A stretch of 35,488 bases of DNA from Micavibrio sp. Lineage in GTDB: Bacteria; Pseudomonadota; Alphaproteobacteria; Micavibrionales; CSBR16-224. The number at the start of each line of letters is the position of its first letter. Position 1 is the first letter of the stretch. Where the stretch lies: contig JALTWL010000290.1 of assembly GCA_027047045.1 (NCBI GenBank), forward strand, positions 1 through 35,488, given 5' to 3'. Below are positions 1 to 20,970 of this stretch, piece by piece. Below the pieces are notes generated by a model. That model saw only the letters and a list, made by a program, of their open reading frames with translations, made no database searches and was not told the origin of the DNA. The translations under genes and the position numbers were made by a program.

Positions 1-2
1 CT

Positions 3-1056: not shown

Positions 1057-1084
1057 AGAAAAAATCTTCTCCAGAAAAAGCAAA

Positions 1085-1101
1085 GGCTCCCATAAGGAGC
1101 C
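1085..1101. other. GC-rich hairpin GGCTCC-cataa-GGAGCC in the 5' leader of the NYN gene
   Basis: Six perfect base pairs (1085-1090 with 1096-1101) in otherwise AT-rich DNA, about 30 nt upstream of the NYN start codon on the minus strand. Confidence 0.35.
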
Positions 1102-3142: not shown

Positions 3143-3146
3143 ACTA

Positions 3147-4457: not shown

Positions 4458-4468
4458 CTATAGTCCAT

Positions 4469-5305
4469 TTAGCATTGTTTTTTCCTAACATTTGCGTAAA
4501 TCATAAATGGAAGACGCTGATCAAGAAAACGATGCAAAAATTTAGGAATTCGTACAGGCAATGCTCGCGCGGGGAAAAAATGATAATATATTTCTTCAAT
4601 TTCAAAATGTGGCGATAACATATCTATAAATTGTTGTTTTGTATACGCTTTACCTATTGGATTATCTGAACCATCATAACACCTGACAATATCAGATGCA
4701 TCTGATGTATCTGCAAGATTCTCACGACCTCGACCCTTTAGGCTAACAAGCCTACCTAACAGACCAAAAACTCCCCAATTACGCAAAATAATATTTTGAT
4801 AATAAACGGACAAACATGCTCTACCATTTGGTTGAAGTACACGGGCAATCTCGGAAATAGCTTGCTGGGTGTCTGGTGTGTGGTGAATAACTCCCTGACA
4901 ATTCACGTGACTGAAAGAACAATCTGAAAAGCTAAGATCTTCAGCGTTTTCTTTAAAAGTTTCCGCTTTTAAATTGTAGTATTCCAGACGTTTTTTTGTT
5001 AAATCAATAGCTTGCTGAGTGAGATCTGCACTAAACATTGCCTCAATAGAACAACGTTTTTGTAGCTCAATCGTCCAAAACCCGGGGCCACAGCCTAAAT
5101 CTAAAACCTTTTCACGATTTTCAATATTAGGAAGCATACGGTCATCAAAATTTCCCGCATAACAATCTGCTATATAGACCTTACGATGCTCTTTAAAATA
5201 ATCAAATGACCCTATATCAGAGCTACTTTCCCCAACGAATAGAGGGTTATTTTCCCAGAAATTATACACATCATCAATATTGGCAGGTTTAGATTTTAAA
5301 GCCAT
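4469..5305 (-). CDS. Class I SAM-dependent methyltransferase
   Basis: SAM-binding motif I VLDLGCGPGFWT, and post-I/II/III motifs (ADLT, VNCQGVIHH, LQPNGRA). Confidence 0.85.
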   Translation of the reverse strand: MALKSKPANIDDVYNFWENNPLFVGESSSDIGSFDYFKEHRKVYIADCYAGNFDDRMLPNIENREKVLDLGCGPGFWTIELQKRCSIEAMFSADLTQQAIDLTKKRLEYYNLKAETFKENAEDLSFSDCSFSHVNCQGVIHHTPDTQQAISEIARVLQPNGRACLSVYYQNIILRNWGVFGLLGRLVSLKGRGRENLADTSDASDIVRCYDGSDNPIGKAYTKQQFIDMLSPHFEIEEIYYHFFPARALPVRIPKFLHRFLDQRLPFMIYANVRKKQC

Positions 5306-5466
5306 TTTCCCTCTTCTTTATGTATTTGTGTTTTTTCTCGATTTATATATAAACGAAAAATATAATATTTACCACCATTAAAGAATATAGGTAGCAGCCT
5401 CAATAGTATACAACTGAATCTTTGATTTATTTTTTATACATAACGTATACTTATCAATGAAAAATA

Positions 5467-6066
5467 TTAATCCTTTATTGAAATTATAATTTTCTCTGGA
5501 TAGCAAGGCATTTCTACCATTTTTAACATTCCTACCATTTTAACTAACTTTATAACCCCTTTATTAGAAACACGAAAACAGCCCCAAAATTTGCTAGATA
5601 CACTTTTTAGTTTCACAATATTATCTTTATAAGCCTCTATAAATTCATTTCTTACAACCTCGTTTCTTCTATGCTTATTATCTATGATAAAAACCCCCAC
5701 ATGATAATTGTATATATCCTCAGGAATAAAATTCTTTAATTTTTTTGTCTTAATGGTCTTATAAAGATTTAATAAAGAAGAAAAACTTAATATATTTTCT
5801 AACAAAAATTTAAATAAATGTATTATAGCTCTTTTTTTAAAATCCGTTTCAAAACCACTGTAATTTAGAAAGATTACACTAAATGCAACAACATTATTAT
5901 CATATATAACTAAATTTATATTAGTATCTTTACGCTGTAAAATTAACTTATAAAATGTACGAACAAAGTTTTCACCTAGAATCATAGATAATTCTTTTTT
6001 ATCCATATTTTGCATATGTAATTCAACAATAGACTCTAAGTCTATAATATTTGCTGTTTTAATCAT
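5467..6066 (-). CDS. Hypothetical protein, possibly a GNAT-fold acyltransferase
   Basis: 199-aa ORF in the operon. Its size and N-terminal layout resemble small acetyltransferases, but the Q/RxxGxG/A motif is not clear. Confidence 0.45.
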   Translation of the reverse strand: MIKTANIIDLESIVELHMQNMDKKELSMILGENFVRTFYKLILQRKDTNINLVIYDNNVVAFSVIFLNYSGFETDFKKRAIIHLFKFLLENILSFSSLLNLYKTIKTKKLKNFIPEDIYNYHVGVFIIDNKHRRNEVVRNEFIEAYKDNIVKLKSVSSKFWGCFRVSNKGVIKLVKMVGMLKMVEMPCYPEKIIISIKD

Positions 6067-6125
6067 TTTGTACTCCTATGAGAAAAATTTATTTGGTTTA
6101 ACCTAACAATTAACACAAACAGAGC

Positions 6126-7379
6126 TTATTTTGAAAGAAAAAATGCTTTAAAGTAATTTTTAATTTGTTCCCTCTTTTGTGTTCTTGATATTAAAAAGAG
6201 AGATTGATGTTCATTCAAACACAGAGGTAGATTAATTATATGCTCCGCGGTATATTTTGCTTCTGGACAAGATACATAACCTTTTTCTTGATAGGCAAAC
6301 ATATCTGCAATACTATAATCGACAATACGCCCTATTTCTACACCAACTTCTTTTTCAAGCTCTGAAATAATCATCTCCATTTTATCAAGGTCATGAACAA
6401 TTACAGGAAAATGGCTCCAAGTATGTCCAGCTTGTGGTTCTTTATAACATAACAAGCCATCATCCTTATAGGGACGTAAAATATCAGCATAAAATACAGC
6501 CAAATTCTGACGATCTTGAATTCTTTGCTCATATCTGGCCAATGAGGACAAACCAATAGTTGCCTCAAAAGAATTCATCTGTCCTTTAAAGTCTTTCGGC
6601 AAATCTATGACATCATCTTGATAATAATCAGTTTCAGAGGACAGCAATTTCGTATTTTTCTGTAACCAATAAACCAATCCATAACCAAGAGATGTAAAAG
6701 CAAAAAAAACTGCCATAACATAGACCCTAGAAAGCAAACTATTCTTATTTTTTATGTCGTCTCTCTTATAGACAATCCTAACTTTATTCGTCAGTTCGGC
6801 ATCTTTTAAAGTCAACATGCCGCCTTTAACACTATTAACCAGTTTCGAAATATTCATGCCAAATAAAGCACCATCACCCCATTTTGTTACAACTTCTTTT
6901 GTACTGTCTTTACAAAAATAGCTATGTGCACAATCTTGTAATACAAATATATGTGGATATTGTATTTTTACGGTCTCGTAAAGCTCCCGTGTCTCCTCAG
7001 CAATGCCAAATAAATGCGTTGGAATAATCATTACAATATCTTCGGGGGATTTTTCTATAGTCGCTATATAAGCCTTAGGATCAGGCTGAAAGCTCCCTTT
7101 CTTATTATCTAAGAATACAGGTATATTGCCAGACATTACAATTGCGTGAGCCACCACAACGCAAGTATAGCTTGGCAAAATTATTTTTTTGTTTTTATGC
7201 CCCAACGCTTTTAAAAGGTAATAAAGACCAGACCGTCCATATCTAAAAGCAACTGCATTCCCTTGTCCTGTTCTTTTAGAAAACTCTTGCTCAAGTTTAT
7301 GCACTGCATTTTCCTTCGCAGGCAAAAAACACTGAAAAAAATCCTTCCATCTATAATCAGGCGAAAAACGTGGTATCAT
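6126..7379 (-). CDS. DegT/DnrJ/EryC1/StrS-family PLP-dependent sugar aminotransferase
   Basis: FRYGRSGLYYLLKALG...ILPSYTCVVVAHAIVMSGNIPVFLD, and a candidate PLP-lysine region FGMNISKLVNSVKGGML. Confidence 0.85.
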   Translation of the reverse strand: MIPRFSPDYRWKDFFQCFLPAKENAVHKLEQEFSKRTGQGNAVAFRYGRSGLYYLLKALGHKNKKIILPSYTCVVVAHAIVMSGNIPVFLDNKKGSFQPDPKAYIATIEKSPEDIVMIIPTHLFGIAEETRELYETVKIQYPHIFVLQDCAHSYFCKDSTKEVVTKWGDGALFGMNISKLVNSVKGGMLTLKDAELTNKVRIVYKRDDIKNKNSLLSRVYVMAVFFAFTSLGYGLVYWLQKNTKLLSSETDYYQDDVIDLPKDFKGQMNSFEATIGLSSLARYEQRIQDRQNLAVFYADILRPYKDDGLLCYKEPQAGHTWSHFPVIVHDLDKMEMIISELEKEVGVEIGRIVDYSIADMFAYQEKGYVSCPEAKYTAEHIINLPLCLNEHQSLFLISRTQKREQIKNYFKAFFLSK

Positions 7380-7384
7380 TAATT

Positions 7385-8935
7385 TTATCTAATTTCCTTG
7401 AATTCTATTAACGCATTTTTTTGTCTAAAAGATTGTTTGTTAAAATAACCACTACTGGCCATATGAATAGCTTTAGATTTACCTAAATGCTTTATCCATT
7501 TTGTGTTTTTAGGTTGTTGTATTTTTTCTTCTATTAATAATCTATCTTCTTCAAAAGTAAACTTCCTAATGACATGCCCATCAATTTTATTTTTGCCCGT
7601 CATGAGTTTTTTTACGATAATTTTTTTAAATAAATTACCTAAAAATACAGATTTAAATATAGTCAAACTTAGCGCTCTTAAAATAATAAATTTTAAAGGG
7701 GTTGGATAATCCTCACCCGACAAATAAAAATCAGTCTTTATAATAAAATCATCAAAATTAATATTATTCTCAAAAGCTTGTGTAGAGAACTTTTTATTAT
7801 TATTTAAGACACCAAATAAACCACCATCTTCAAAAACCTGTTTTGAGTTTTTATCAAATATTTTTATTGTTCCACCTTTTTTATAATTAATTACGGCAAA
7901 ATAATGTTTATTTGAATGAAGGAAAAGCCCCGCTCCTTGAAAATCTTTTTCATCCTCACATTGCCAAAAAGCTTTTAATTTACATTTTTTTATAGCAGCC
8001 TTGCTTTGCTCAAAGTTAATTGCCGCCACAGCATAGGAATTTAACAGTGGAATAAAATTACCTATATCTATTTCTTGGGGTAAAATATGCTGTTCTTTAG
8101 GCTCTAAATATTTTGCCATCAATGCAAAATCATCTATTTTCTCCGCAAGACTAATGATACCAGCAGGATAAAAAACCTCGGTATTTCTTGAACCATAAAG
8201 TCCACCAATACTTCCATCTGGATGAATGAAATGTTTTAAAAAACGAGCTGATTTCTCTAAACTTTTCAGTAGCTTTTTATCTTGAGTAATCTCATAAGCG
8301 CAATAAAGATAATAAGTACATAAAGTTTGATAGGCAGGATCTGCTCCATCATATTCACGATACCAACCTTCTGATGATTGCTGTTTATAAATAATTGCCA
8401 ACAACTCATTAGCATGACAATTATCAGATTCTGTTAATTTATTCCAAAGAGCTATTGCAGCAACCGCTGTCGCCAAATGATTAGAAATAACAGCATGTTC
8501 TTCATTATTTACGGTAATAAAATTAATAAGCGGGCGAATAATATCAAAATATTTATCTATTATAATTTCATCTTGCAAATAGTTTAAAGCCGATAATATA
8601 TCAAATGCCACAAGCGCAGTTACACAAAAAGAATTTTCCGCAGGATACGCTTCTTCCATAGAGCCATTAGAATATGTGATATTGCTAGTCGCATTAATAA
8701 CGCTATCAATAACGTCTAAAACTTTTCTCTTTTCCTCCGCAGTAAACAACTCAAGTTTTATTGCAATGGCAAGGCTATGCACACCACCTTGCATAGTTGC
8801 ATTGGCAAAATCTTTGGTTTTCCAGCCCCAATACTCTCTATCTCCTATACCGTAAGTGGTCGAAAACTTATCTAAATTATATAGATTTAATAGACGGCTT
8901 AAATTTTCAGACAGTATTTGTTTATAAATGTTCAC
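7385..8935 (-). CDS. Hypothetical 516-aa protein of unknown function (possibly an alpha/alpha-toroid-type carbohydrate-active enzyme)
   Basis: Long ORF translationally coupled to the upstream gene by a 4-nt overlap. Segments rich in aromatic residues and Gly (SSEGWYREYDGADPAYQT, HPDGSIGGLYGSRNTEVFYPAG) resemble heparinase-II/III or cyclase-like toroid folds. That is pattern recognition only. Confidence 0.55.
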   Translation of the reverse strand: MNIYKQILSENLSRLLNLYNLDKFSTTYGIGDREYWGWKTKDFANATMQGGVHSLAIAIKLELFTAEEKRKVLDVIDSVINATSNITYSNGSMEEAYPAENSFCVTALVAFDILSALNYLQDEIIIDKYFDIIRPLINFITVNNEEHAVISNHLATAVAAIALWNKLTESDNCHANELLAIIYKQQSSEGWYREYDGADPAYQTLCTYYLYCAYEITQDKKLLKSLEKSARFLKHFIHPDGSIGGLYGSRNTEVFYPAGIISLAEKIDDFALMAKYLEPKEQHILPQEIDIGNFIPLLNSYAVAAINFEQSKAAIKKCKLKAFWQCEDEKDFQGAGLFLHSNKHYFAVINYKKGGTIKIFDKNSKQVFEDGGLFGVLNNNKKFSTQAFENNINFDDFIIKTDFYLSGEDYPTPLKFIILRALSLTIFKSVFLGNLFKKIIVKKLMTGKNKIDGHVIRKFTFEEDRLLIEEKIQQPKNTKWIKHLGKSKAIHMASSGYFNKQSFRQKNALIEFKEIR

Positions 8936-9351
8936 GGCTTATCATTTCTATAAATAAAAGACCAAGACAAATTAAAGTCCATCGGCAATATTCCAAGTGG
9001 TTTTTTAACGGACTTAATATTTATAAAATTATCATCGAGTTGTTTCTTAATTTTATTTACAAAATTAGGGTGCTCCCAACAAATTATTTTATCGTAATCA
9101 ATATCCATGTGTTTCTTTACATACCTTCTTGAGGTTACGAATCTACCTAGACCCCAAGCAATTCCACCTTCAGTCGGCACAGCGCCAATTAAAATACCGT
9201 TAGGCTTTAATATTCTTTTTAATTCTTGTAAATAATATTCATTCTGCCATTTTATAAAATCAGCATCATAAAAATCTGTTTTTAATCCCCATTTTTCCCT
9301 ATCACCAAATAATGGCTTGAATATAAAATACGGTAAATATCTATATAGCAT
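8932..9351 (-). CDS. Methyltransferase-like C-terminal half (lacks the SAM-binding motif I)
   Basis: LKRILKPNGILIGAVPTEGG matches the post-motif-III region of class I methyltransferases. Only ~45 aa precede it and they contain no GxGxG motif. The ORF overlaps its upstream neighbour by 11 nt and its downstream neighbour by 4 nt. Confidence 0.5.
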   Translation of the reverse strand: MLYRYLPYFIFKPLFGDREKWGLKTDFYDADFIKWQNEYYLQELKRILKPNGILIGAVPTEGGIAWGLGRFVTSRRYVKKHMDIDYDKIICWEHPNFVNKIKKQLDDNFINIKSVKKPLGILPMDFNLSWSFIYRNDKP

Positions 9352-10627
9352 TTAATAACTCCTTGTAAAAACTATTCCATTTGTAATCACTATTACAGAC
9401 TCTTTGATGCCAAGAAATTGAAAAATAAGCGGTTTTTGGCGTTTCTTTAGCATTTTTAAATATATCCAAAGCTAAATCTTTTTTTTCATTATAATCAAAA
9501 ATATTTGAATCCATAATGACTTGAGGTATCTCGAAATAATTAAATGCTTTTTTGTCTTTAAAATTATATGGTCGATAAAGGCTGGCTATCCCACTTCTAA
9601 AACCAACCTGATTATTCCACCCTAAACTTGAATCGTATTCAAATAATTTACTGTGACTATATGGAGTAATATTTTCATTATAATTAAGCCAATGCTGTCT
9701 CGTTTTTGTAACCTTTGTTTTTAAGATGCTTTCTAAAATCTGTTTTTCTTTTTTCAGTTGCTCGTAATCTAAAGCGCTTTTATAACTACCATGCAAACCA
9801 ATCTCGAAACCTTTTTTTTGTAATTCTTGTAGTTTAACTCGTAGTTTTTTATTTGAAGCAACGTCATAACTTGGATCTATTAATAACTCTTTTAGAGTTT
9901 TTTTCCCATGCTTTACGTAGATATAAAAAGTGGATTTTTTTTTAAAACCTTTTTCCAAGTCAACCCAATAGTCAAAACACCAATAAGATGGATTTGAAAA
10001 TAAAAATTGCAGCATTCTTTTTGTATTATTTAGAAAGTTTTTATAATCTCTGAAAATATTAACTGAATTTAAGATTGTTTGCTTAAATCTTAATTGCCAG
10101 GTCTTATTTATATAATCCACATCATGCGATAAATCCACAACAGGCACTGCTCTATTTTTAAACTTAAGTGATTTAAAATTCTGCTTTATAAATCCTTCAA
10201 ATTCATTAAATAGAACATTTACAATTGGAATATAAAAACTTTCCCTATCATTTCTTATGTGCTTTATACTGTAGCTTGCCGTGTTTTTAAATTGTTCTTC
10301 ATACCTACTTAAAAATACAAACGCATTCCAGAAAACATCATATTTAAAATTAAAATTATTATTTTCTGTAGCTTTTAAAATATATAAATCTTCTTTTAAA
10401 TATTCAATATTCCCATCTGGCTTAGGCATTAAAGCATTGAAAATTGATACTTTGTCTATAGCTTTATTGGTATAATATATTTCATTTTCAAAAAAAGCTT
10501 GGCTATCAATAGATACTACTTTTATAGTAAACTTAGCCAAATTTATTCTTCTAAATTCTTCTAAAACATATTCTAGAAAGTTAGTCTCTTTTAAATCTGT
10601 TTTTATTACTAATAAATCACCCATCAA
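9341..10627 (-). CDS. Polysaccharide deacetylase-like (divergent NodB/CE4-like) protein
   Basis: 428 aa with DLSHDVDY and GLHGSY motifs, reminiscent of the metal-binding motifs of deacetylase-family proteins encoded next to AsnB-like amidotransferases. Confidence 0.5.
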   Translation of the reverse strand: MMGDLLVIKTDLKETNFLEYVLEEFRRINLAKFTIKVVSIDSQAFFENEIYYTNKAIDKVSIFNALMPKPDGNIEYLKEDLYILKATENNNFNFKYDVFWNAFVFLSRYEEQFKNTASYSIKHIRNDRESFYIPIVNVLFNEFEGFIKQNFKSLKFKNRAVPVVDLSHDVDYINKTWQLRFKQTILNSVNIFRDYKNFLNNTKRMLQFLFSNPSYWCFDYWVDLEKGFKKKSTFYIYVKHGKKTLKELLIDPSYDVASNKKLRVKLQELQKKGFEIGLHGSYKSALDYEQLKKEKQILESILKTKVTKTRQHWLNYNENITPYSHSKLFEYDSSLGWNNQVGFRSGIASLYRPYNFKDKKAFNYFEIPQVIMDSNIFDYNEKKDLALDIFKNAKETPKTAYFSISWHQRVCNSDYKWNSFYKELLNAI

Positions 10628-12488
10628 TAAAACTCCTGAACCAGACCTCTAAACTTAATATCCCCCATAAATCTCTATTAAATTTACCAGAATTCACCAA
10701 CATATTTTCTACTTCTTTAGGATTGTATATTCCTCTTTCTCTTGCTTTTTGAGAGAGCAGGGTATCATGTGCATAGTCTTTTAACTCATTAGATAGCCAC
10801 TTATTTATTGGGGTGGGGAAACCCATTTTATCTTTTCTATTAATAACCTCTTGAGGCAGAAAGTTTTTAATAGCTTCTATCAACATATACTTTGTTTTAC
10901 CACCTTCAAATTTCATTATAGGATTAATTTGAGATGCTAATTCCACCAATCTATAATCCAATATTGGCACTCTAGATTCTAATGAATGAGCCATACTAAC
11001 TCTGTCTTCTACATGTAAAAGAGCAGGAATTAGAGTTTTTAAATCGAAATACGTCATTTTATTGAAAAGAGATTTTATATTTGGATTATTAAAAATAGAT
11101 TGAAACTTGCTAAATAATTTATCTTGTTCGGATAATATATCAAGTTCATATAGTTTGTTTGCATTTAGGGATCTATTAACAAGCTTAAAATAGCTTTTAT
11201 CTATATCTTCAAATATCCCCGTGGAAAAATGGCTTTTCATCATCGGAACATAACCTTGCAATTGTGAAAGATTTGGAATAATTGATTGCAAGGTCACAAC
11301 ATATTCACTTTCTTCTTGAGTTTCAAAAATTGCACCTTTTAAAGCTTGCTCTAAATAAGCAACTAAATATCGCGTATATCCACCAAATATTTCATCACCG
11401 CCATGCCCACCTAAGACAACAGTTACATGTTCTTTAGCAAGTTTTGAGACCATATATTGAGAAAACACTCCAGAACCTGCCTCTGGATAATCCATGTGAT
11501 AAATTATATTTTCAAAATTATCAATAAAGTCGTTATGGGTAGGATATATAACATTGTGAATACTATTAATATTTTTACTAACCAAATCAGAATAAAACGT
11601 CTCATCATATTCTGGGCCATCTTTAAAAGCGCCGCTAAAAGTATAAAGGCGACTGTCATAGTTTTTCGCTGCAAATGTTGCAACTATACTAGAATCTATA
11701 CCTCCACTTAAATAAGCCCCAACTTTAACATCAGAACGAGTTTGAATATTAACAGAATGGTCTAAAATATGCTGGATCTCTGATAAGAAATATTCTTCAC
11801 TATGGGTGTTATCTATATCATAATTCAATTCCCAATATTGTTGCTTTTTAACCACTCTCCCTTCTTTAACTATCATATAATTTGCAGGTTCAAGTGATGA
11901 AATATCTTTAAATAATGTGTTTTCTCCAAGCATTAATTGAAACGTTATATATTCATGTAAAGAGGGTTCATCTAATTTTGCTTGAATATTGGGATATTTT
12001 AAAATTGCCTTTACCTCTGAGGCAAAAACAAAACCATTTTCTACATTAGTATAATATAAGGGCTTAATTCCGAAATGATCTCTTGCTAAAAATAACTCCT
12101 GCTTTTTTTTATCATAAACGGCAAAGGCGAACATACCATTTAGCTTGGTTAAGCATTTTTCTTTATACTCAATATAAATATTAAGTAAGACTTCTGTATC
12201 AGAAAAGGTTTTAAATTTATATCCTTTAGCAATTAAATCCTGTCTTAATTCCAAATAGTTATATATCTCACCATTAAAAATCAAGACATATCTGTCATCA
12301 TTACTGGACATAGGTTGTTTGGCACCTTCAATATCAATAATTGCCAATCTTTTATGCCCTAAGGCAACTCTATCATCAATAAAACAACCCTCATCATCAG
12401 GCCCCCTATGATTAAGAGTGCTTAACTGTTCTTTTAAAATACTTTCTTTATTCTCTATTTTAGAATAAAATCCAACAATTCCACACAT
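10617..12488 (-). CDS. asnB: Asparagine synthase (glutamine-hydrolysing) family amidotransferase, AsnB-like
   Basis: MCGIVGFY N-terminal nucleophile Cys2, the GATase-II domain and the PP-loop SGGIDSS. 623 aa, the full two-domain length. Confidence 0.9.
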   Translation of the reverse strand: MCGIVGFYSKIENKESILKEQLSTLNHRGPDDEGCFIDDRVALGHKRLAIIDIEGAKQPMSSNDDRYVLIFNGEIYNYLELRQDLIAKGYKFKTFSDTEVLLNIYIEYKEKCLTKLNGMFAFAVYDKKKQELFLARDHFGIKPLYYTNVENGFVFASEVKAILKYPNIQAKLDEPSLHEYITFQLMLGENTLFKDISSLEPANYMIVKEGRVVKKQQYWELNYDIDNTHSEEYFLSEIQHILDHSVNIQTRSDVKVGAYLSGGIDSSIVATFAAKNYDSRLYTFSGAFKDGPEYDETFYSDLVSKNINSIHNVIYPTHNDFIDNFENIIYHMDYPEAGSGVFSQYMVSKLAKEHVTVVLGGHGGDEIFGGYTRYLVAYLEQALKGAIFETQEESEYVVTLQSIIPNLSQLQGYVPMMKSHFSTGIFEDIDKSYFKLVNRSLNANKLYELDILSEQDKLFSKFQSIFNNPNIKSLFNKMTYFDLKTLIPALLHVEDRVSMAHSLESRVPILDYRLVELASQINPIMKFEGGKTKYMLIEAIKNFLPQEVINRKDKMGFPTPINKWLSNELKDYAHDTLLSQKARERGIYNPKEVENMLVNSGKFNRDLWGILSLEVWFRSFIDG

Positions 12489-12498
12489 TTATCGCTAT

Positions 12499-13320
12499 TC
12501 AATCATGTAATTTTTTTACGTTTTTATAACCAGTTCTCCACCCGCCCCAAGGCCAATAATATAATAATACCAATGTCATATAGCCAAAAGTTGTAATAGA
12601 ACTAACCATTTTGGAGGCACTTCTTTTTTGATCATATCTCAAAACAAAAGGTGCTTCTCCAAATTTAGCCCCAATGATTTTTAATTTAACAACTTTTTCT
12701 AAAGTAACAGTAAAACCCAATCCCTTTAATTGAATAAAGTTATTTCCAAAAACTTCTATAACATGTTTAATAGCCTTTGCCTTATAAGCCCTAAAACCGC
12801 TAGAATATTCCTTTAATCCCTTTATAGGAAAAAAGAATTTCATAAATAGATTAGCCAATTTTGAAATTGTTGATCTATAACCATCTAAACCTTCTTGACC
12901 TCCACCTTCAACAAATCTTGACGCTATAACGACATCACAACCTTCTTCTATTCTTTCCAATAAGCTTGGGATAAATTGAGGTTCATGAGTATCATCACAA
13001 TCCATTCTTATAAAAATATCATCGTCATTGGATATTTTCGCAGCTTTTTCAAATAAATCCCTAGAAGTTTCTCCCAGCCCTCTATTTATCTCATGAGTTA
13101 TAATCGTCATTGGAAGTTTTTCAGAGTATTCCTTGAGCATTTTTGCTGTTTTATCTCGACTACCATCGTCACAAACTATTATGTGATAATCTAATTTCAT
13201 ATCTTCTTTAAACGCTTTGTCAATTTTTGGCAAAAGATAGTCTAAAGATTCTTCTTCATTATAAGCCGGTAGTAAAATATATATCACTAGATGTTTCCTA
13301 ATATTTTTTAATATAGTCAA
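12499..13320 (-). CDS. Family 2 glycosyltransferase (polyprenyl-phosphate sugar transferase-like)
   Basis: YILLPAYNEEESL, CDDGSRDKT and MDCDDTH (DXD) motifs. The start may be the TTG at 13320 or a downstream GTG. Confidence 0.9.
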   Translation of the reverse strand: MTILKNIRKHLVIYILLPAYNEEESLDYLLPKIDKAFKEDMKLDYHIIVCDDGSRDKTAKMLKEYSEKLPMTIITHEINRGLGETSRDLFEKAAKISNDDDIFIRMDCDDTHEPQFIPSLLERIEEGCDVVIASRFVEGGGQEGLDGYRSTISKLANLFMKFFFPIKGLKEYSSGFRAYKAKAIKHVIEVFGNNFIQLKGLGFTVTLEKVVKLKIIGAKFGEAPFVLRYDQKRSASKMVSSITTFGYMTLVLLYYWPWGGWRTGYKNVKKLHD

Positions 13321-13323
13321 ATT

Positions 13324-13395
13324 TTTAACAGCATAATATATGTTATAATATAAGTTCTAGTATTACTATAAAATAACATATATTATGCTGTTAAA
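13324..13395. repeat. Perfect 23-bp inverted repeat (TTTAACAGCATAATATATGTTAT / ATAACATATATTATGCTGTTAAA) with a 26-nt spacer
   Basis: Arms at 13324-13346 and 13373-13395 are exact reverse complements. The repeat lies in the ~85-bp gap between the GT2 start and the truncated GT4 gene. Confidence 0.9.
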
Positions 13396-13413
13396 CATAA
13401 CCGACATGGCTGA

Positions 13414-14358
13414 TATGAACAACAAAAAAAAACTATATTTGAAAAAATAACAACAATCATCAGATATGCTTTTTATGTTATCAAAGATTCATCAAAATTT
13501 TCGGTTATTCATTGCCATGATTTAGACACTCTACCGATAGGAACCGCAATAAAGTTAATAAACTTTAATAAAAAAAAGCTCATTTATGATGCACATGAAT
13601 ATGAAACGGAACGAAATCATATTAACGGATTTTTAAAAAGTTTATATAAAATTACTGAACGTATATTTATTGGCTTTGCCGATAATATAATTACGGTGAG
13701 TGACGGCATTGCAGATGAATATGTTCGGATTTATGGAGTAAAGAAACCTAACCTAGTTATGAATTGTCCACCTTATATTGATAAAGTTAATAGTAAAGAT
13801 ATTTTTCGTAAAAACTTTAATATAGATAAAAAACAAAACATTTTTCTATATCAAGGTGGATTATTCAATCATAGAGGCATAGAAACAATATTAGAAAGTT
13901 TCCAACAAACCCAAGATAAAATAGTTGTATTTATGGGGAATGGACCACTGGAAGGTATAATAAAACAAGCCGCCGATAAACATGATAATATTTTTTATCA
14001 TAAAGCAGTATCACCCGATGTTTTGTTAGATTATACAGCATCAGCTGATATTGGGATTTTCACATGCCCAAATAGCTGCTTAAGTCATTATTATTGTTTA
14101 TCAAATAAATTATTTGAATATACAATGGCTGAATTACCCGTAATTGTGTCAGATTTGCATGAAATGAAAAGAATAATTGATAAATATCAAAGTGGCTTAG
14201 TAATAAAAAACAATACTAAAGCTCTTACTGAAGTGATAAATAATATAACAGCAACAGATATTAAAAATTATAAAAAGAATATCAAAGCAATGAAGAAAAT
14301 ATATTGCTGGGAGCAACAAGAAAAATCATTATTAAGCCTTTATAATCACAATAACTGA
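13414..14358 (+). pseudogene. Family 4 glycosyltransferase lacking its N-terminal ~60-70 codons and a canonical in-frame start (the ORF track calls only 13696-14358)
   Basis: The frame is open from 13414 and encodes ...FSVIHCHDLDTLPIGTAIKLI..LIYDAHEYETERNH...ITVSDGIADEY...NCP, followed by the C-terminal GT-B domain. There is no ATG, GTG or TTG in frame before 13696. An out-of-frame ATG at 13406 precedes an A9 tract. Confidence 0.55.
13424..13432 (+). repeat. Homopolymeric A9 tract separating the ATG at 13406 from the GT4 reading frame
   Basis: Counted directly. Adding one A (A10) would fuse MADMNNKKK to TIFEKITTIIRY... in the GT4 frame. Confidence 0.8.
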
Positions 14359-15401
14359 GCAATTATTCTTTCTGCTGAATTCCCCGCACCATATATATTT
14401 TCTTTAAAATAATTTACGCTAGATAGTTTTTTAACGGCAGAGAGAATTTTAGTCTTATTTGCCCCAGTTAAAATTCCTATACCATTTTCAATCAGCTCTA
14501 ACCATTCTGTTTCATCTCGCATAATTATAACTGGCTTTTTAAAATAATAAGCCTCTTTTTGTAATCCGCCAGAATCGGTTAAAACCGTTTTTGTATTTTG
14601 CAATAAATATAGCATATCAAAATATCCAACAGGCTCAATTATATGTAAGTTTTCTATATTGATTTTGTATTCTTCCAGATATTTTTTTGTTCTCGGGTGT
14701 AGAGGTAAAACTACTGGATTGTTTTTGGCTATTTCATCTAAGCTAGCAAAAATTTCAGTTAAATTTTGTTCATTATCAGTATTTTCTTGTCGATGGCACG
14801 TGGCTAAATAAAAATCTTTTGGTATATTCTTGGTTATTTCAGATGATTTAATTTTAGCCTTATAATATAATACAGCGTCATACATAACATCACCAACAAC
14901 ATATATATTATCTTTTACACCCTCTTTTTTTAGATTCTCTGCTGACAAATCAGTGGGACAGAATAAATATTTAGACACATGATCTGTAATAATTCTATTT
15001 ATTTCTTCTGGCATGTTTTTGTTGTAAGAACGCATTCCAGCTTCAATATGAGCGATCGGAATTAACAATTTTACGGCCGATAATGCTGCGGCAAGTGTCG
15101 AATTTGTATCACCATAAACTAAGATAATATCAGGTTTTTCATCTATCATAATTTCTTCTAGCTTTATTAGCATTTCTCCTGTCATTGCACCGTGAGATTT
15201 ACCATTAATGGCTAGATTATAATCTGGTTCTGGGATATCCATTTCATCAAAGAAAATTTGTGACATATTATTTTCGTAATGTTGCCCTGTGTGAATAATT
15301 ATCTCTGTTATAACATTAGAATATTTTTCTTTTATTACTCTAGAAATGGTCGCAGCTTTGATAAATTGTGGCCTTGCACCGATAATTGTTAGTATTTTCA
15401 T
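14346..15401 (-). CDS. wecB: UDP-N-acetylglucosamine 2-epimerase (non-hydrolysing)
   Basis: MKILTIIGARPQFIKAA, HTGQHY, YGDTNSTLA, HIEAGMRS and DSGGLQKEA motifs. 351 aa. Confidence 0.92.
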   Translation of the reverse strand: MKILTIIGARPQFIKAATISRVIKEKYSNVITEIIIHTGQHYENNMSQIFFDEMDIPEPDYNLAINGKSHGAMTGEMLIKLEEIMIDEKPDIILVYGDTNSTLAAALSAVKLLIPIAHIEAGMRSYNKNMPEEINRIITDHVSKYLFCPTDLSAENLKKEGVKDNIYVVGDVMYDAVLYYKAKIKSSEITKNIPKDFYLATCHRQENTDNEQNLTEIFASLDEIAKNNPVVLPLHPRTKKYLEEYKINIENLHIIEPVGYFDMLYLLQNTKTVLTDSGGLQKEAYYFKKPVIIMRDETEWLELIENGIGILTGANKTKILSAVKKLSSVNYFKENIYGAGNSAERIIAQLL

Positions 15402-15563
15402 CTAGTAATCCTTTTAGTAAGTATTTTAGCATTGTTTTTATTACTATATAGTACAAACCATTACTAACTAATAACAACAAATATATTTACTATTGAATAA
15501 AAAACTTCTATTTATAACAGTTAAAGAAATCAATAAAAGTATAATGATACTGAAAGGATAACC

Positions 15564-15689
15564 ATGGTTATAAAAGTAGAAATATTGAATAATGATGACG
15601 AGATATCACAACAATATGATAAAATAGAGATAACTAATATAATCAATACACTACAAAATGATCTAATAATAGGTAAAGTATTAAAGTAA
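15564..15689 (+). CDS. 41-codon ORF with a good RBS, in the same frame as ORF 15819-16124 (possibly the N-terminal piece of an interrupted gene)
   Basis: AAGGA lies 6 nt upstream of the ATG at 15564. TAA at 15687-15689. The frame stays open from 15690 to 16124. Confidence 0.3.
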   Translation: MVIKVEILNNDDEISQQYDKIEITNIINTLQNDLIIGKVLK

Positions 15690-15818
15690 CTAGAAAACAA
15701 CCCCTGTAATCTTAGTGATAAAACGGCGGCACATAAAATTATAATAGATAATCATCTAACTGAAAAAACAATCGTTAATGGGAAACTAACAACAATAGAA
15801 ACACCCTTACAAATAAAA

Positions 15819-16124
15819 ATGACTACAATATATGATATAGAAAATAATATAACAGTTCGAGGGATTATAATAATAAACCCCCACCTTCTATTAAAAACAG
15901 AGTACTGTATAGAACAAATAAATAAAGAAACTGGTGAAATAGATATAGAGAAAAGAAAATATACAATGAAAGAGGCTCTTCTATATGCTATGCTGTTGAT
16001 AGTACGAAAACAAAGCTATATAAAATCTGGTTTTATATCTGACAGCGATATAAAAAATCATGATATACACCAACAACTTATGGCATATGTTCAGCAAAAT
16101 CTGGAAAGATTAGAAAGTGCGTAA
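15819..16124 (+). CDS. Hypothetical protein (101 aa from the first ATG)
   Basis: ORF in the track with no recognisable motifs. It is in frame with the upstream 41-codon ORF. Confidence 0.4.
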   Translation: MTTIYDIENNITVRGIIIINPHLLLKTEYCIEQINKETGEIDIEKRKYTMKEALLYAMLLIVRKQSYIKSGFISDSDIKNHDIHQQLMAYVQQNLERLESA

Positions 16125-16555
16125 GCAACACATCACATAATAATCCTATATACATAAAAACCCCAATATCTTAAATTAAGGACGTTTTTACTATACTGGT
16201 TTCAAATGAACCATAATTTGCACAAGATTGATCGATGGTAGTTCAGAAGGCAGAGCAAAGTCTCCTTTTGATCTTAATGAAATTATCATGATTTTTAGGA
16301 GCACGAAGGCTCTTAAAATTGAATTACGAATGATGGACTTGTGTATGAATAATACACTGCACGTCCTCGTATATATTTCACTTGCGTACTCGCAAAGTCT
16401 CATCCTTTGTGTAATATAACTCGATGTAATTTCCGTTTAAAATACGTTGTATTTTTGAATGTAAATTGCGATTAAACGGCAATGTGTTTATCTCCATGAC
16501 ATGGCCTTAAAGAGGGATACAACGGGAGAATGCGGGCAGCAATTTTCTCCCTTGT

Positions 16556-16620
16556 CAAGATTGTATTGTATTGTTCTTTGTTAACATTTTGTTAAACTTT
16601 GTACTACAATACACATCTTG
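16556..16620. repeat. Long imperfect hairpin (15 bp, one bulge) enclosing a TTTGTTAA(A)C direct repeat
   Basis: caagattgtattgta (16556-16570) pairs with tacaataca-c-atcttg (16605-16620). The inner direct repeats are at 16577-16585 and 16588-16597. A 7-bp hairpin GGGAGAA/TTCTCCC sits at 16524-16551. Confidence 0.6.
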
Positions 16621-17018
16621 CGTTAAATAGGAATAGAACAAAAATATAGCGATTCGAATGGGTTTTGTTACTTTGTTAATTCAAAATATTAGGCTCGCTT
16701 AAAATTATTTTGAATTTTTTTCAGCAATAATGTCCGCCCTAATTTTCTTATCCTATTGTATTTCTTCACGCCGCAATCAATTCCAAAAACATTTATATAT
16801 TTTTTATTTTTCTATTAACTACGCAAAAAATATTTACAATACTTAAAGCTCCACAACAATACATCTACCTAGTCATTTATATAACACTATATGCTGAGGA
16901 GTAGCGTATTTAAATGTACAATCTAAATAATTTTAAGAATGGCTATAACACAAAACTAAAGATAGGTACCATACAACACTAATGTAGGATACTAATACCA
17001 AAAAATAGAAATACACAG

Positions 17019-20000
17019 TCAACTACACTCCTGCCATTTTTTAATCTGAGCTACACAGTCATCTATGTTATCCCGTATCTCATACACCCAGAACCTTTTT
17101 ACATCCCAACCAAGTTCGAATAATCTTTGATTCCTAATTTGGTCGCGCCTACATAGTTCCCCAGTCCAGTTCCTGTGGTATCGCTCTCCATCAACTTCGA
17201 TATCCAGCCTACGTTCGTTACTAAATAGTGCTAAGTCAAGGGTATATTTTTCTACCTGATATTGAGGTATAGTTTTTATTCCAGCCTTATATAGTGCACT
17301 ATAAAGCACACGCTCCCATTTAGATACTCTATCTGGATTAGCAACAGTTGGATATTTCTCCCCCAAATCTTGTATGCGGTTTTCAACGCCACTCGTAGAC
17401 ATGGTTTCCAAGTTCTTCACATACTTAGCAAATCTTTCCAAGTATGAAACTTTACATTTAATAATAGATTCTAGATCTCCAACTACTAACAGCGTAGCAC
17501 GAGCTCTCGTTATAGCAACATTGAAAAGATTGCCGTTATTTTCCAAAAAGGCTAAGGCCCCTACCGGCATATTATTGGAAATTACTGGGGAAAATATTAT
17601 AACATCCCGCTCATCACCTTGAAACTTATGCACTGTATCTACTATAAAATCGTGCTCTAACAATTTATCCTGTAAACCATTGCAGTCACCAATAATCCTG
17701 CGTATAAAATTAGCTTGTCCCCTAAAGGGAGTAACTATTCCAATTGTACCGTTATATTTTTTTTCATTAATCAGCCTATCTATTTCTTTAACCACACATC
17801 TAGCTTCTTCCTCATTGACTGCTCCACCAGTTTTAGGTCTTACTACCTCACCTTTTACGTTTATCCATTGCACTCCACGTTTATTGGAATCTATAGGTTT
17901 TAGGCAACTATAATCAGTTGCAACCCTTAGCTTATTTTCATAAAACCCCTTATTTGCAAATTCAATTATGTCCTTATGTGATCTATGGTGATCCCTAAGA
18001 TTAATAATGCTATCTTGCGATGCAAATCCGCACGCAAGATCAAATAAAGAATTATATGAATAAGCCCATCTAACATATTCAGGTACTAAACCATATTTTT
18101 CTAAAAGTTGTTGATCCTGCCCTTTTTTCAAGCCACTAATATGGCATAGTTGTTTTGGATCTCCAATAACAACTGCTTGTTTGGCCCTATATAGCAAAGG
18201 TAAGGCTGACGCAATATCACACTGACTTGCTTCATCAAATACCACAATGTCGAAGTAACCGGCTTCAAAAGGGACTTTTCCCCTAGCGGACAACGATGTC
18301 ACAGCCCATGCAGGTAATAAATGGGATACTTGCTTTGATAAAGCGGAATACTCTCTGTAAATTTTCCTTCCAAGCTTTTTATAAATATCACCTCCAGTCT
18401 CAATAATCATCTTTAACATAGTATGGTAATTTCCAAGCAAATTTCTATCTTCATCTGATAGCCTGCTCGGCTGCAAGTTCAACCATCCTATCCAAATATC
18501 CTTAGCTATACTTGCCATATCTTTTAGTAGAGATAATCTTTCCTTTGCAATCTGTTCAAGAGATTTAGTGTTTTTAAGCTCAGTAAGTATGTCAGCATAC
18601 TCATGCAATACTTGCGCAAACTTATAATATTCAGTTAGTTTCTGGTGTAAATCTGACCACGATTGAATACTATAGCTCACATCCATTTTACTTGTGAATA
18701 TTTCTAAATCAGAGGCAAGATTATGAAATTCCTTCCAAAAATCTTGGTAACACTTTCTACCCACCAACGCCCAGCGTAACATGCCCAAAATACCATGTCT
18801 GTTTTGTAAATGCTGTATCAACGTGTATAAATCATCGGCAACCATCCTGATATACATCGGATCTATATTGTTCAATCTTTCGACTAAGTCAGGAGAAAAA
18901 TATTTTTGCCTATTGGTAATAATCTGGTCTAACTCGTCAATTTTATTACGTAATTCTACAAGCCTATCTTCATATTTTGACAACCGAGTAAACCTTTTTT
19001 CTAGATTTCTATAGCGTTGTTTATCAAATTCAAATTCTTGTGAATCATATACAGAAGAACTGGTTGTCAACAATCCAATCAAATATTCTGCTAGCCTTAC
19101 ATGATACTGCCCTGCCCCCATACGCAACAATACCGGGCGTGGTGCAAGGTTGTTAACTCTTGTTTCAACCACATCTACCGCTTTATTGTTTTTACTTGCG
19201 AACAAAATCTTCTTTCCCCGCCAAACCGCATTTACAAGTAAGTTTGTAACTACTTGCGACTTTCCAGTACCAGGCGGTCCAGTTATAACTGTTAGAGGTG
19301 CATCTAAAGAGCTTTGAATAGCCTGACGCTGTTCAGTATTAAGCGGTAGGATCTCCAATATCGGTTTGTCTTCTGTATCACTTTCCGATTGTTTAAGTAA
19401 ATCTCCACTCACCCACTGTCCTAGTACAGTATCCTTGTATATACTTGGCTCTAATTTCGATAAGGATTTCAATTCTGCCTCCAGACCTCGAGTGTAAGGT
19501 GAACGTTCACCAATGATGAAAATAGCTCTATTGTATATACCCTCTTCTTGTAATTCGCGTATAGGTGGCTCTGTAATAAGTTTATCTGGAACGATATCCT
19601 CCATCCATGGCCACTCTGGTCTGATGTTAACTAATCTTCGTACTAAATCATCAAATTCTGGTAAGTCCTCTCCAAAATCTATACCAAGCTCCTCTTCTAA
19701 CTGTACAAACTCATCCATAAGTTGTTCACGTTCTGCATTAGTAAATAGCTTTAGAACAGAAAAATTTAGCATAGGGAAAGTATCTGTTATTCTGAGCGTT
19801 CCCCTATTTACTTCAGCTGAAAATATGAATACTGGCTCTACAAAAAAGCCTTCCCAACTACTTCTTCGTGACTTCACATATTTTAAAACTGTTGGATATC
19901 CAAAGTATACTTCTTTGTTGCCGCGATCTCTCCTTATTTTGCTCAGTAAATTTTGTACTCCACCAGTATGCTGCAAGTAATCATTGTCGGAGCTTGGAAA

Positions 20001-20348
20001 AGAAACAAGCTCTGTATAATCCAAATCTTTGCCATCTGCAAAAACTCTAATTCCCTCACCTACGTCTTGCCCAAGACAAGCTAGATAATAATTACTAATT
20101 TTTGCAAGTGGTGTCCCTAAAGCAGTATCATCCTCTTTTACAGTTGATACTGGAAAGTCATTATTTAAGTACCAGCAGTACTTATTGTCCTGCATACATT
20201 TATCGCTCAAACTACCGTAAAGTGCTTTGTTAACAAGTTCCTTTTCAACACCAAGTTCAGATGCTATCTCACGTGCCTTTATTCCTGGCATATCTCTTAA
20301 AATAGACAAAATCTTAACGTTCAAATCAGAAGTATGTGAAGCAATCAT
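17019..20348 (-). CDS. Multidomain SF1B (Upf1-like, AAA_11/AAA_12-type) helicase with an N-terminal winged helix and a C-terminal Vsr/DUF559-type PD-(D/E)xK endonuclease
   Basis: Walker A GPPGTGKS (aa 357-364, nt 19257-19280), motif II FDEASQ, III VIGDPKQL, V TVHKFQGDERDVII, VI NVAITRAR. A long coiled-coil-like insert (aa ~410-690) separates motifs Ia and II. The C-terminus YTLDLAL..RLDIEVDGERYH..GWDVKRFW is the DUF559/Vsr-like signature. The N-terminus ILSILRDMPGIKAREIASELGVEKELVNKALYGSL...W is a wHTH. Confidence 0.9.
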   Translation of the reverse strand: MIASHTSDLNVKILSILRDMPGIKAREIASELGVEKELVNKALYGSLSDKCMQDNKYCWYLNNDFPVSTVKEDDTALGTPLAKISNYYLACLGQDVGEGIRVFADGKDLDYTELVSFPSSDNDYLQHTGGVQNLLSKIRRDRGNKEVYFGYPTVLKYVKSRRSSWEGFFVEPVFIFSAEVNRGTLRITDTFPMLNFSVLKLFTNAEREQLMDEFVQLEEELGIDFGEDLPEFDDLVRRLVNIRPEWPWMEDIVPDKLITEPPIRELQEEGIYNRAIFIIGERSPYTRGLEAELKSLSKLEPSIYKDTVLGQWVSGDLLKQSESDTEDKPILEILPLNTEQRQAIQSSLDAPLTVITGPPGTGKSQVVTNLLVNAVWRGKKILFASKNNKAVDVVETRVNNLAPRPVLLRMGAGQYHVRLAEYLIGLLTTSSSVYDSQEFEFDKQRYRNLEKRFTRLSKYEDRLVELRNKIDELDQIITNRQKYFSPDLVERLNNIDPMYIRMVADDLYTLIQHLQNRHGILGMLRWALVGRKCYQDFWKEFHNLASDLEIFTSKMDVSYSIQSWSDLHQKLTEYYKFAQVLHEYADILTELKNTKSLEQIAKERLSLLKDMASIAKDIWIGWLNLQPSRLSDEDRNLLGNYHTMLKMIIETGGDIYKKLGRKIYREYSALSKQVSHLLPAWAVTSLSARGKVPFEAGYFDIVVFDEASQCDIASALPLLYRAKQAVVIGDPKQLCHISGLKKGQDQQLLEKYGLVPEYVRWAYSYNSLFDLACGFASQDSIINLRDHHRSHKDIIEFANKGFYENKLRVATDYSCLKPIDSNKRGVQWINVKGEVVRPKTGGAVNEEEARCVVKEIDRLINEKKYNGTIGIVTPFRGQANFIRRIIGDCNGLQDKLLEHDFIVDTVHKFQGDERDVIIFSPVISNNMPVGALAFLENNGNLFNVAITRARATLLVVGDLESIIKCKVSYLERFAKYVKNLETMSTSGVENRIQDLGEKYPTVANPDRVSKWERVLYSALYKAGIKTIPQYQVEKYTLDLALFSNERRLDIEVDGERYHRNWTGELCRRDQIRNQRLFELGWDVKRFWVYEIRDNIDDCVAQIKKWQECS

Positions 20349-20923
20349 AGTATCGAACCTGTATCATTAAACAACATGTTATGCACTACCGTATTACCTA
20401 ACGTAGCTTTAATTTTTTCTACCGTAATGTATACCATTTTAGAAAACTGAAAGCGATAAAATTTCACAACCTAAACAAAATACAAAACAACAACAAAATT
20501 CATATCCCATAAAAGATTAGAAAATAAAGTGTATCTTATACTTATTAGCATCATTACTTTCAGTGACATACATAATATTTTAAAAAAGTGATGAGCCCAA
20601 CAAAACCTTGCTTTTATACAGCATTTTTTTGATATTCTTCAACTTTAAACTAGCTAAGTGATTCTTTAAAATTTATTCAATAATTATTTACATATATTTC
20701 AATAAGTTATATCGCATCAATAAAAATTAACATAATATTTTAGATGTTAGGCTATTGTTTTAACTAGAGAAATTTAATGGTAGGTGCATTGCTCTGCTAA
20801 AGCGTATAGATAACAATGATGATAAGCTTATAGTTATCCAATACAATGGGAACGTTCCAAGTGAAACAGAAATCCGAAAGCTAGTTCATTTTCAAGAAAA
20901 ATTTTTTAAATCTAAAATCATTT

Positions 20924-20942
20924 TTACCTAACAACTAGGTAA
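20924..20942. terminator. Weak AT-rich hairpin TTACCTA-acaac-TAGGTAA about 30 nt downstream of ligA (possible terminator)
   Basis: 7-bp perfect stem read directly. No strong U-run follows on either strand. Confidence 0.25.
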
Positions 20943-20970
20943 GACTATTATATTTAAAACCAACTATAAG

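Follow-up and report, generated by a model that had tools for sequence, protein, structure and literature searches.

The stretch of DNA analysed here as a whole, hereafter the window, comprises 35,488 nucleotides of contig JALTWL010000290.1 from Micavibrio sp. (assembly GCA_027047045.1), and carries on its minus strand a gene whose product combines a winged helix-turn-helix (wHTH), a helicase of superfamily 1B (SF1B) and a nuclease of the very-short-patch-repair (Vsr) type in one polypeptide. An earlier reading of the DNA letters alone, referred to below as the original prediction, had proposed this gene as a candidate single-gene module of nucleic-acid immunity. The following features were delimited in its open reading frame (ORF):

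17019-20348, minus strand: the whole ORF, with an ATG start and 1109 amino acids plus stop, encoding a Zα-like wHTH, a conserved N-domain, an SF1B helicase with a helical insertion and a Vsr-like nuclease.
20163-20327, minus strand: Zα-type winged helix (residues 8-62), with K36, N40 and Y44 on the recognition helix and W59 in the beta wing.
19359-20114, minus strand: conserved alpha/beta domain (residues 79-330), beginning at a 'YYLAC' motif.
19107-19343, minus strand: first part of RecA1 (residues 336-414), with Walker A GPPGTGKS (K363) and motif Ia.
18309-19106, minus strand: all-helical insertion in RecA1 (residues 415-680, about 265 amino acids), delimited from the AlphaFold2 (AF2) model and from conservation.
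17454-18308, minus strand: remaining RecA1 and RecA2 (residues 681-965), with motif II DEASQ, motif III GDPKQL and, in RecA2, motifs V and VI.
17028-17321, minus strand: Vsr/DUF559/MTES_1575 nuclease of the PD-(D/E)xK type (residues 1010-1107), with invariant D1038, E1051, D1053, H1058, R1068, D1069 and R1072.

The 1109-amino-acid protein is an Upf1-like SF1B helicase by its motifs, by Pfam, by comparison with the sequences of the Protein Data Bank (PDB) and by its fold. All the helicase motifs quoted in the original prediction are present in the translation, namely GPPGTGKS (residues 357-364, including K363), FDEASQ (704-709), VIGDPKQL (727-734), TVHKFQGDERD (905-915) and NVAITRAR (943-950), and in an alignment of 41 full-length homologues sharing 49-63% identity the Walker A, DEASQ, GDPxQL, HxFQGDxRD and NVxITRA signatures are all invariant. 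Pfam assigns residues 336-734 to AAA_11 (E 3e-23) and residues 767-958 to AAA_12 (E 5e-33); the sequence matches in the PDB are all Upf1-like SF1B helicases (SETX/Sen1, Upf1/Nam7, IGHMBP2, Dna2, Aquarius and ZNFX1; 1e-15 to 2e-30), and the full AlphaFold model, with a pLDDT (predicted local distance difference test) score of 76.5, returns the same list in Foldseek with E-values from 1e-16 to 1e-10. RecA1 is interrupted by a stretch described in the original prediction as a coiled-coil-like insertion of about 280 residues; the helical insertion itself is borne out by the AF2 model, with long helices at residues 433-481, 497-548 and 561-629, and its length is corrected to about 265 residues, a region less conserved than the remaining protein and with few invariant columns in the 41-homologue alignment. 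The C-terminal domain is a Vsr/DUF559/MTES_1575 nuclease, as had been proposed, since both Pfam matches exceed their cut-offs (MTES_1575, residues 1012-1102, E 3.6e-12, 46.6 bits against a cut-off of 38.2; DUF559, E 1.6e-7, 31.6 bits against 20.6) and the candidate catalytic residues D1038, E1051 and D1053 are invariant in the same alignment; its activity is predicted from the family match and the conserved acidic residues.

Between the winged helix and the motor, the domain at residues 79-330 is strongly conserved, with Y87, L89, C91, D110, Y111, P152, P172, R243, E245, W248, N273, E290 and E292 invariant, and it has no family match in Pfam and no fold match in the PDB by Foldseek. AAA_11, AAA_12, DUF559 and MTES_1575, all anticipated in the original prediction, were thus found; DUF4011, anticipated as well, was absent from Pfam searches at E<=1 both in the window protein and in the N-terminal regions of 16 homologues. 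The 79-330 domain is retained by relatives that have no wHTH, and one subgroup starts directly at a 'RYYLAC' motif.

The N-terminal winged helix is real, as had been claimed, and on sequence and modelled fold it is of the Zα type by four independent routes. A profile built from the first 75 residues of 32 homologues was compared with all PDB sequences, and its 17 best matches are all Zα domains, the best being fish PKZ (4e-7); the E-values are 2e-5 for ORF112 of cyprinid herpesvirus 3 (CyHV-3), about 1e-4 for ADAR1 and 1e-3 for poxvirus E3, followed by 0.05-0.1 for ZBP1, and the recognition helix of the family profile, 'vdKKqvNslLYg', pairs with 'lDKStvNrhLYn' of Zα. In Pfam, more members match z-alpha (PF02295) than any other family (22 of the 32, best 4.6e-6), with HTH_24 behind it. 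The third route is a separate AlphaFold model of residues 1-335 (pLDDT 79.7; 81-93 across residues 11-60), for which Foldseek gives a probability of 1.00 together with a good superposition for Zα structures only, with target-normalised TM scores of 0.65-0.82 and a root-mean-square deviation (rmsd) of 1.3-2.6 Å; these include the Zα of ORF112 with Z-DNA (4wcg; TM 0.82, rmsd 1.3 Å, 34% identity), the Zα of PKZ with Z-DNA (4kmf; TM 0.80, rmsd 1.6 Å), the Zα of zebrafish PKZ and that of ADAR1 (TM 0.65-0.75), the rmsd for 4wcg, 4kmf and ADAR1 ranging from 1.3 to 1.9 Å. IclR-type fold matches were discarded for their superposition at about 19 Å rmsd. Finally, the 75 N-terminal amino acids of the window protein alone match the ORF112 Zα (4.5e-4, residues 6-61), their six best matches all being Zα domains, and in the alignment VNKALY lies on VNRHLY and the wing CWYL on VWYL, with N40, Y44 and W59 opposite N, Y and W. 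The domain thus shares with the Zα of ADAR1, ZBP1, PKZ, E3 and ORF112 the same fold, with 24-34% identity and the above rmsd over nearly the whole domain, and differs from them in being bacterial and fused to a helicase-nuclease.

No fewer than 90% of the homologues keep N40 and Y44 and all of them keep W59, and in the family consensus the N/Y pair is preceded by KK; we take the equivalents of the three residues in ADAR1 to be N173, Y177 and, presumably by that numbering, W195. N173 and Y177 are the Zα residues named in a survey of bacterial Zα-like domains. According to two recent surveys of Zα beyond animals and viruses, bacteria have just two kinds: ArsR-type variants carry Arg in place of Asn, and the other kind, Zα-like domains in sigma-54 regulators, is devoid of N173/Y177 and failed to bind Z-DNA in the experiments of one of the surveys. 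Within the literature searched, the Zα-type sensor domain of this family, in which the signature residues N/Y/W are kept, is unreported in bacteria, and no paper linking Zα to phage defence was found. A hidden Markov model (HMM) of the domain matches 52 helicase ORFs in the fetched loci, and the strict Zα signature is present in about half of 71 full-length relatives. As a separate observation, the PADLOC model of ZorC (type I Zorya, 'EH signature' protein) matches residues 8-64 of the window protein with its C-terminal end (positions 616-672 of 687, E 1e-9), so ZorC may, by this profile match, carry the same kind of winged helix; nothing was found in the literature on the ZorC C-terminal domain.

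The original prediction had held that this domain order with an N-terminal sensor was undescribed, and this does not stand. The CoCoNuT systems, predicted computationally by Bell, Sahakyan, Makarova, Wolf and Koonin (eLife 2024; PMC11090510), include a Type III-B CnuH protein made up of an N-terminal wHTH, a UPF1-like SF1 helicase into which a large helical/coiled-coil stretch is inserted after Walker A, an OB-fold and a fused Vsr-like nuclease, encoded mainly in Alphaproteobacteria in an operon with CnuA (coiled-coil only), CnuB/McrB, CnuC/McrC and CnuD. The window protein has the same order of parts, with wHTH, helicase with insertion and directly fused Vsr, it is homologous to III-B CnuH from about residue 266 to its end, and the N-domain motif 'RYY..' is common to both. 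Nevertheless, the identity over residues 266-1104 is only 28-38%, the insertion and the first 265 or so residues do not align, and the window gene, like most of its clade, stands alone, whereas behind the III-B helicases come CnuA, CnuB/McrB, CnuC/McrC and one more gene, the fourth. The wHTH of the III-B CoCoNuTs shows no Zα signature and no Zα matches, and the Sul7s-like assignment given to the wHTH of III-B CnuH was dropped for the window clade, whose domain has no Sul7s match in sequence or fold searches. Since the wHTH is absent from one subgroup of relatives and that of III-B is not Zα-like, the wHTH is a modular addition to a conserved core.

Genuine III-B loci were recovered from Alphaproteobacteria among the distant matches (L072-L085; e.g. 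L073 and L077, from 10001 onward), in the order helicase-Vsr, coiled-coil-only protein (~534 aa), coiled-coil plus AAA_5 McrB-like protein (~700 aa), DUF2357 McrC-like protein (~517 aa) and, last, a protein of ~785 aa with no Pfam match. L077 also has a type I HsdR gene 13 bp upstream. When McrB, McrC, CnuA and the fourth gene from these loci were compared by tblastn with the 35-kb window, nothing was found below E 0.07. A full Type III-B CoCoNuT was consequently rejected, given that partner genes or their remnants are absent from the window and that the genuine III-B loci form a separate subgroup. The low identity of the III-B helicases, the lack of alignment across the insertion and the missing partner trace in the window place the window gene, although related to III-B CnuH, in a clade of its own that is mostly solitary and is set apart at the sequence level by pairwise identity, wHTH type and partners rather than by a full phylogeny.

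The helicase-Vsr half is also described in Hhe, ProA and PDC-S37. Hhe, a validated single-gene system named 'DUF4011 domain-containing anti-phage protein' by NCBIfam, is likewise a single polypeptide in which an AAA_11/AAA_12 helicase is followed by a Vsr/MTES_1575 nuclease, and it shares about residues 680-1100 of the window protein; in contrast, Hhe has about 1800-1900 aa and DUF4011, and the shorter window protein has no DUF4011 match and a different N-terminal half. The Hhe model of NCBIfam scores 139 bits against a cut-off of 2000 (residues 679-1089) and in PADLOC, too, Hhe matches only in part (695-1102). For the NCBIfam model of ProA (NF058533, 'anti-phage protein ProA') the score is 208.7 bits against a cut-off of 1500 (residues 694-1103), and ProA and the PADLOC candidate PDC-S37 are the named models that score best; in both, the RecA2 plus Vsr-like half is shared, residues 693-1103 corresponding to profile positions of about 930-1700, but the profiles are much longer (1550-1903 positions). 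As the Hhe, ProA and PDC-S37 matches cover residues of about 680-1100, what these proteins have in common with the window protein is the RecA2-plus-Vsr half, to the exclusion of the N-terminal half. PLuB scores 130 bits against a cut-off of 999, and the literature searched on ProA and PLuB yielded no paper. The Mokosh effector is a PLD-type nuclease. Mokosh MkoA and MkoC have the same Upf1/Mov10-like helicase core (PADLOC E 2e-63 and 5e-51), but the match is restricted to the helicase (residues 328-995), the Vsr domain lies outside it, and the window protein has no PLD domain in Pfam. The PADLOC matches, to MkoC, PDC-S37, MkoA and Hhe, are thus all partial and all curated cut-offs are missed widely, so membership of Hhe, ProA, PLuB, Mokosh, PDC-S37, Nhi or Gabija was rejected, in agreement with the original prediction that the gene is not simply a member of a named system. 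In summary, a single chain with an Upf1-like helicase and a Vsr nuclease is a known kind of protein, as in Hhe and the predicted III-B CnuH; what is new is a distinct, widespread, solitary and shorter family with its own conserved N-domain and a Zα-type wHTH that keeps the signature residues.

In a large protein database, 2465 relatives were found at E<=1e-10, more than 120 of them full-length (about 1105-1130 aa) and named, where they are named at all, 'AAA domain-containing', 'DUF559 domain-containing' or 'very-short-patch-repair endonuclease'. A scan with one genome per species found relatives in at least 594 species, at 41-62% identity; the taxa include Flavobacteriales, Auribacterota, Planctomycetota, Dehalococcoidia, Patescibacteria, Nitrospira, Firmicutes, Pelagibacteraceae, many Proteobacteria and archaea, and the closest named relatives of the window protein are from metagenome-assembled genomes of Flavobacteriales and Auribacterota (62%). 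This scatter across phyla, together with closest relatives outside the Alphaproteobacteria, indicates that the family has spread by extensive horizontal transfer. The helicase frame is split into two or three ORFs in five of 54 copies (L015, L042, L057, L059 and L066), which could be pseudogenes or assembly frameshifts, consistent with a dispensable accessory gene.

To describe the neighbourhoods, ORFs were called in 85 loci and six genes on each side were clustered. No conserved partner emerged among the 85 loci, no neighbour family being present in more than eight; the largest clusters are type I restriction HsdR (8 loci), GmrSD (5) and PglX/MmeI-like methyltransferases (4), and in 29 of the 54 closer-family loci whose flanks were adequate, any same-strand gene on either side is more than 100 bp away. 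Among the 134 nearest neighbours in 60 loci, the commonest Pfam families are Helicase_C, N6_Mtase, ResIII, GmrSD_N, MmeI_Mtase, Eco57I, McrBC, HSDR_N, NERD, HNH_2, WYL and integrase, with housekeeping genes also represented, and the commonest PADLOC families are HEC-05, mad2, PDC-M55C, CBASS cyclases, DrmMI, type IIG enzymes, PbeA, DrmD, ZorD and DpdE/F. In two loci ZorD-like genes adjoin the helicase homologue; one homologue sits in an island bounded by an integrase, together with CBASS, GmrSD, Mrr and NucS-like genes, another with a DpnII-type nuclease, an AAA_21 protein and a serine recombinase, and a further one with a polysaccharide gene and an integrase. These neighbourhoods support an association of the family with defence islands.

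Two homologues with about 50% identity, from Halomonas alkalicola (L003 1-17209) and Simiduia (L005 1-17241), lie between an ARMADA-I-like cassette and McrB/McrC, in the order YprA/DUF1998 helicase, Snf2 helicase, PglX/MmeI-like methyltransferase, a 407-420-aa protein (with WYL in one), helicase-Vsr, ~880-aa McrB and McrC, and in Halomonas the stop of the helicase overlaps the McrB start. The definition of ARMADA Type I in the YprA preprint fits the upstream cassette, and its authors remark that canonical McrBC is often found beside cassettes of this kind; neither ARMADA type I nor type II, as defined, includes a helicase of the window type, and the reading of the gene as an ARMADA component was therefore rejected. 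In Prosthecochloris sp. ZM (L001 19158-23330), a group of genes for a 448-aa protein, a GrpE-like protein, an Hsp70/MreB-like protein and an AAA ATPase was observed 6-9 kb downstream of the homologue, and a DUF1889 gene 75 bp upstream; the CnuD of CoCoNuTs is also Hsp70-like.

In the window itself, the gene occupies the gene-poor insert that the original prediction had placed between a polysaccharide locus and the bamD-recN-ligA block, with gaps of 1.6 kb and 0.6 kb and no operon partner:

20349-20970, strand not assigned: AT-rich spacer of 0.6 kb between ligA and the gene, the presumed promoter location.
15402-17018, strand not assigned: gene-poor stretch of 1.6 kb downstream of the gene, with small ORFs only.

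Upstream, on the minus strand, lie ligA, recN, bamD and priA. Two small ORFs in the downstream stretch, 15819-16124 (plus strand, 101 aa) and 16191-16403 (minus strand, 70 aa), have no Pfam match, and beyond them follow genes for a UDP-GlcNAc 2-epimerase, glycosyltransferases (GT2), an AsnB-type amidotransferase, a DegT aminotransferase, an S-adenosylmethionine (SAM) methyltransferase and a flippase. Rfam gives no RNA family anywhere in the window, the promoter scan yielded no more sites than shuffled controls did, and the terminator scan none. At 0.36-0.39, the GC content of the ORF matches the core genes beside it; composition being uninformative, the idea of a compositional island was dropped. 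Relatives occur in only 4 of 2.9 million viral contigs, which points to a cellular gene; together with the lack of an integrase, a tRNA and convincing flanking or att-like repeats near the gene, this led to the rejection of a phage or prophage origin.

The host is, by the sequence matches of its LigA, a divergent AT-rich alphaproteobacterium: the best matches are one relative at 84% identity and then, at about 62%, Micavibrio, Rhodospirillales and other Alphaproteobacteria. The TAL-priA-bamD-recN-ligA block is conserved in the 84% relative and in a 62% relative, in which ligA is followed by alpha/beta-hydrolase genes, directly in the former and after two small genes in the latter, and both the helicase gene and the polysaccharide cluster are absent downstream of ligA. 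Since the region flanking ligA differs in both, the window gene lies in a variable segment, and the variable presence expected by the original prediction is found both here and in the sporadic distribution of homologues. The polysaccharide cluster (window 1-15401) has a GC content of 0.27-0.35, below that of the core genes; given this and its absence from the closest relatives, the variable segment may extend past the helicase gene to the cluster. Within this minus-strand cluster, an ORF on the opposite strand (13696-14358, plus) encodes a 220-aa GT1-type glycosyltransferase with the C-terminal Glycos_transf_1 domain only, so that a truncated gene is possible; it shares 13 bp with the end of the epimerase gene. 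At the opposite end of the cluster, 430-1083 (minus) encodes a 217-aa NYN-domain protein, a predicted RNase.

Judged from this context, the protein is probably a stand-alone helicase-nuclease defence against phages or other invading DNA. An intact motor, a nuclease, a Zα-type wHTH and a conserved N-domain are united in one chain, there is no obligatory partner, and the genomic behaviour is defence-like, with HsdR, GmrSD, methyltransferase/type IIG, CBASS cyclases, McrBC, ARMADA-I, ZorD, NERD and HNH as recurrent neighbours. Hhe is the nearest experimental analogy. In the PhageMaP preprint, where Hhe is a single helicase-nuclease gene, seven T7 class II genes of DNA metabolism are flagged as potential triggers, gene g40 of Bas63 is toxic only with Hhe present, and the authors infer that Hhe responds to the effects of the trigger genes and not to the proteins themselves. 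Some points weigh on the other side. The proximity to defence genes, which the original prediction had expected, is frequent, but as an enrichment it is a rough count without a matched background; the neighbours in the window are housekeeping and polysaccharide genes, none of them defence genes; and in P. aeruginosa a gene for a DUF4011 helicase belongs to the core set, which shows that proteins of this sort are not always accessory.

As to the mechanism of such a defence, the Zα-like domain, possibly with the 79-330 domain, would recognise the shape of a nucleic acid and not its sequence, candidate targets being left-handed or strongly underwound DNA or RNA, for instance behind fast phage transcription or replication, or in modified DNA. 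Recognition would load or release the motor, which would run 5'->3' on a single strand, the tethered Vsr-like nuclease would nick or cut the tracked molecule, and the long helical insertion may mediate self-association or autoinhibition. The specific proposal that the N-terminal domain is a working Z-DNA/Z-RNA reader, and hence a bacterial immune sensor of left-handed or underwound phage-induced nucleic acid answered by a helicase-nuclease, is offered tentatively, as a possibility that we rate well below the defence role itself. Several features of the domain count against it: the window copy has E37, where the family consensus is Lys and ADAR1 has K170; the canonical Pro-Pro of the Zα wing is replaced by Y57-C58 (Y-R/C across the family); the N-terminal domain of the window protein scores slightly better against HTH_24/MarR than against Pfam z-alpha, and has no z-alpha match at E<=1. 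In a beta-/gammaproteobacterial subclade (L029, L032, L033, L035, L037 and L038), Ala, Thr or Ser replaces the Tyr, with Asn and the wing Trp retained ('VNRCLA..'), in what looks like a natural series of variants at that residue, and one subgroup of relatives is without any wHTH; given the loss of the Tyr in the one and of the wHTH in the other, recognition of the Z-form cannot be essential to the core activity. Moreover, the bacterial Zα-like domains assayed so far did not bind Z-DNA.

Among the alternatives, a defence protein acting on RNA, either Z-RNA or structured phage transcripts, instead of DNA is a variant of the defence reading and not exclusive of it, and we consider it unlikely. 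Upf1-like helicases commonly act on RNA and Zα binds Z-RNA as well as Z-DNA, and PMC11090510 argues for RNA targeting by CoCoNuTs and states that such nuclease families can cut RNA; on the other hand, the neighbours are mostly DNA restriction systems, and the potential triggers flagged for Hhe are phage genes of DNA metabolism. Characterised nucleases of the Vsr/DUF559 type, moreover, act on DNA. Somewhat less credible still is a host enzyme of genome maintenance (a Dna2-like or Vsr-like repair helicase-nuclease) or a factor of RNA surveillance outside defence, a reading to which the position beside ligA-recN-priA, the GC content shared with these core genes, the core status of the DUF4011 helicase gene in P. 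aeruginosa and the roles of Upf1, Dna2, SETX and IGHMBP2 in repair or RNA quality control and of Vsr in repair would lend themselves; however, the gene is missing from the syntenic site in both LigA relatives, it is found in a small fraction of species and patchily across phyla, its neighbours are variable and often of defence type, and the five split copies also argue against such a role. Least probable, and in our view improbable, is an orphaned or trans-acting part, unable to act alone, of an McrBC-type system with several genes, whether CoCoNuT Type III-B or an ARMADA-I/McrBC array: the architecture common with III-B CnuH (PMC11090510) and the Halomonas and Simiduia arrays, with their overlapping frames in Halomonas, favour it, but no McrB, McrC, CnuA or CnuD homologue or remnant was found in the 35-kb window (the remainder of the genome lying outside the search), just 2 of about 60 closer-family loci have McrBC next to the gene, no partner family is shared by more than eight loci, and the genuine III-B loci remain separate in identity and in the type of wHTH.

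Defences in which one gene supplies both helicase and nuclease, as in Hhe, are known, but they are little understood, above all as regards what they sense. The family described here, read as a stand-alone defence, is a compact 1109-aa version with a recognisable sensor module, and its winged helix retains the KK..N..Y..W signature and can be superposed on structures of Zα bound to Z-DNA, whereas earlier surveys found degenerate bacterial versions only. If it binds the Z-form, the conformation of nucleic acids as a signal of infection would become directly testable in bacteria, Z-form sensing, as by ZBP1, ADAR1 and PKZ and as opposed by the viral antagonists E3 and ORF112, would be an immune principle common to bacteria and animals, and the Zα domain would gain a root, or a parallel, among prokaryotes. 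Without such binding, the gene would still be useful as a clean model with no partners, representing both the helicase-Vsr class and the solo relatives of the CoCoNuT CnuH.

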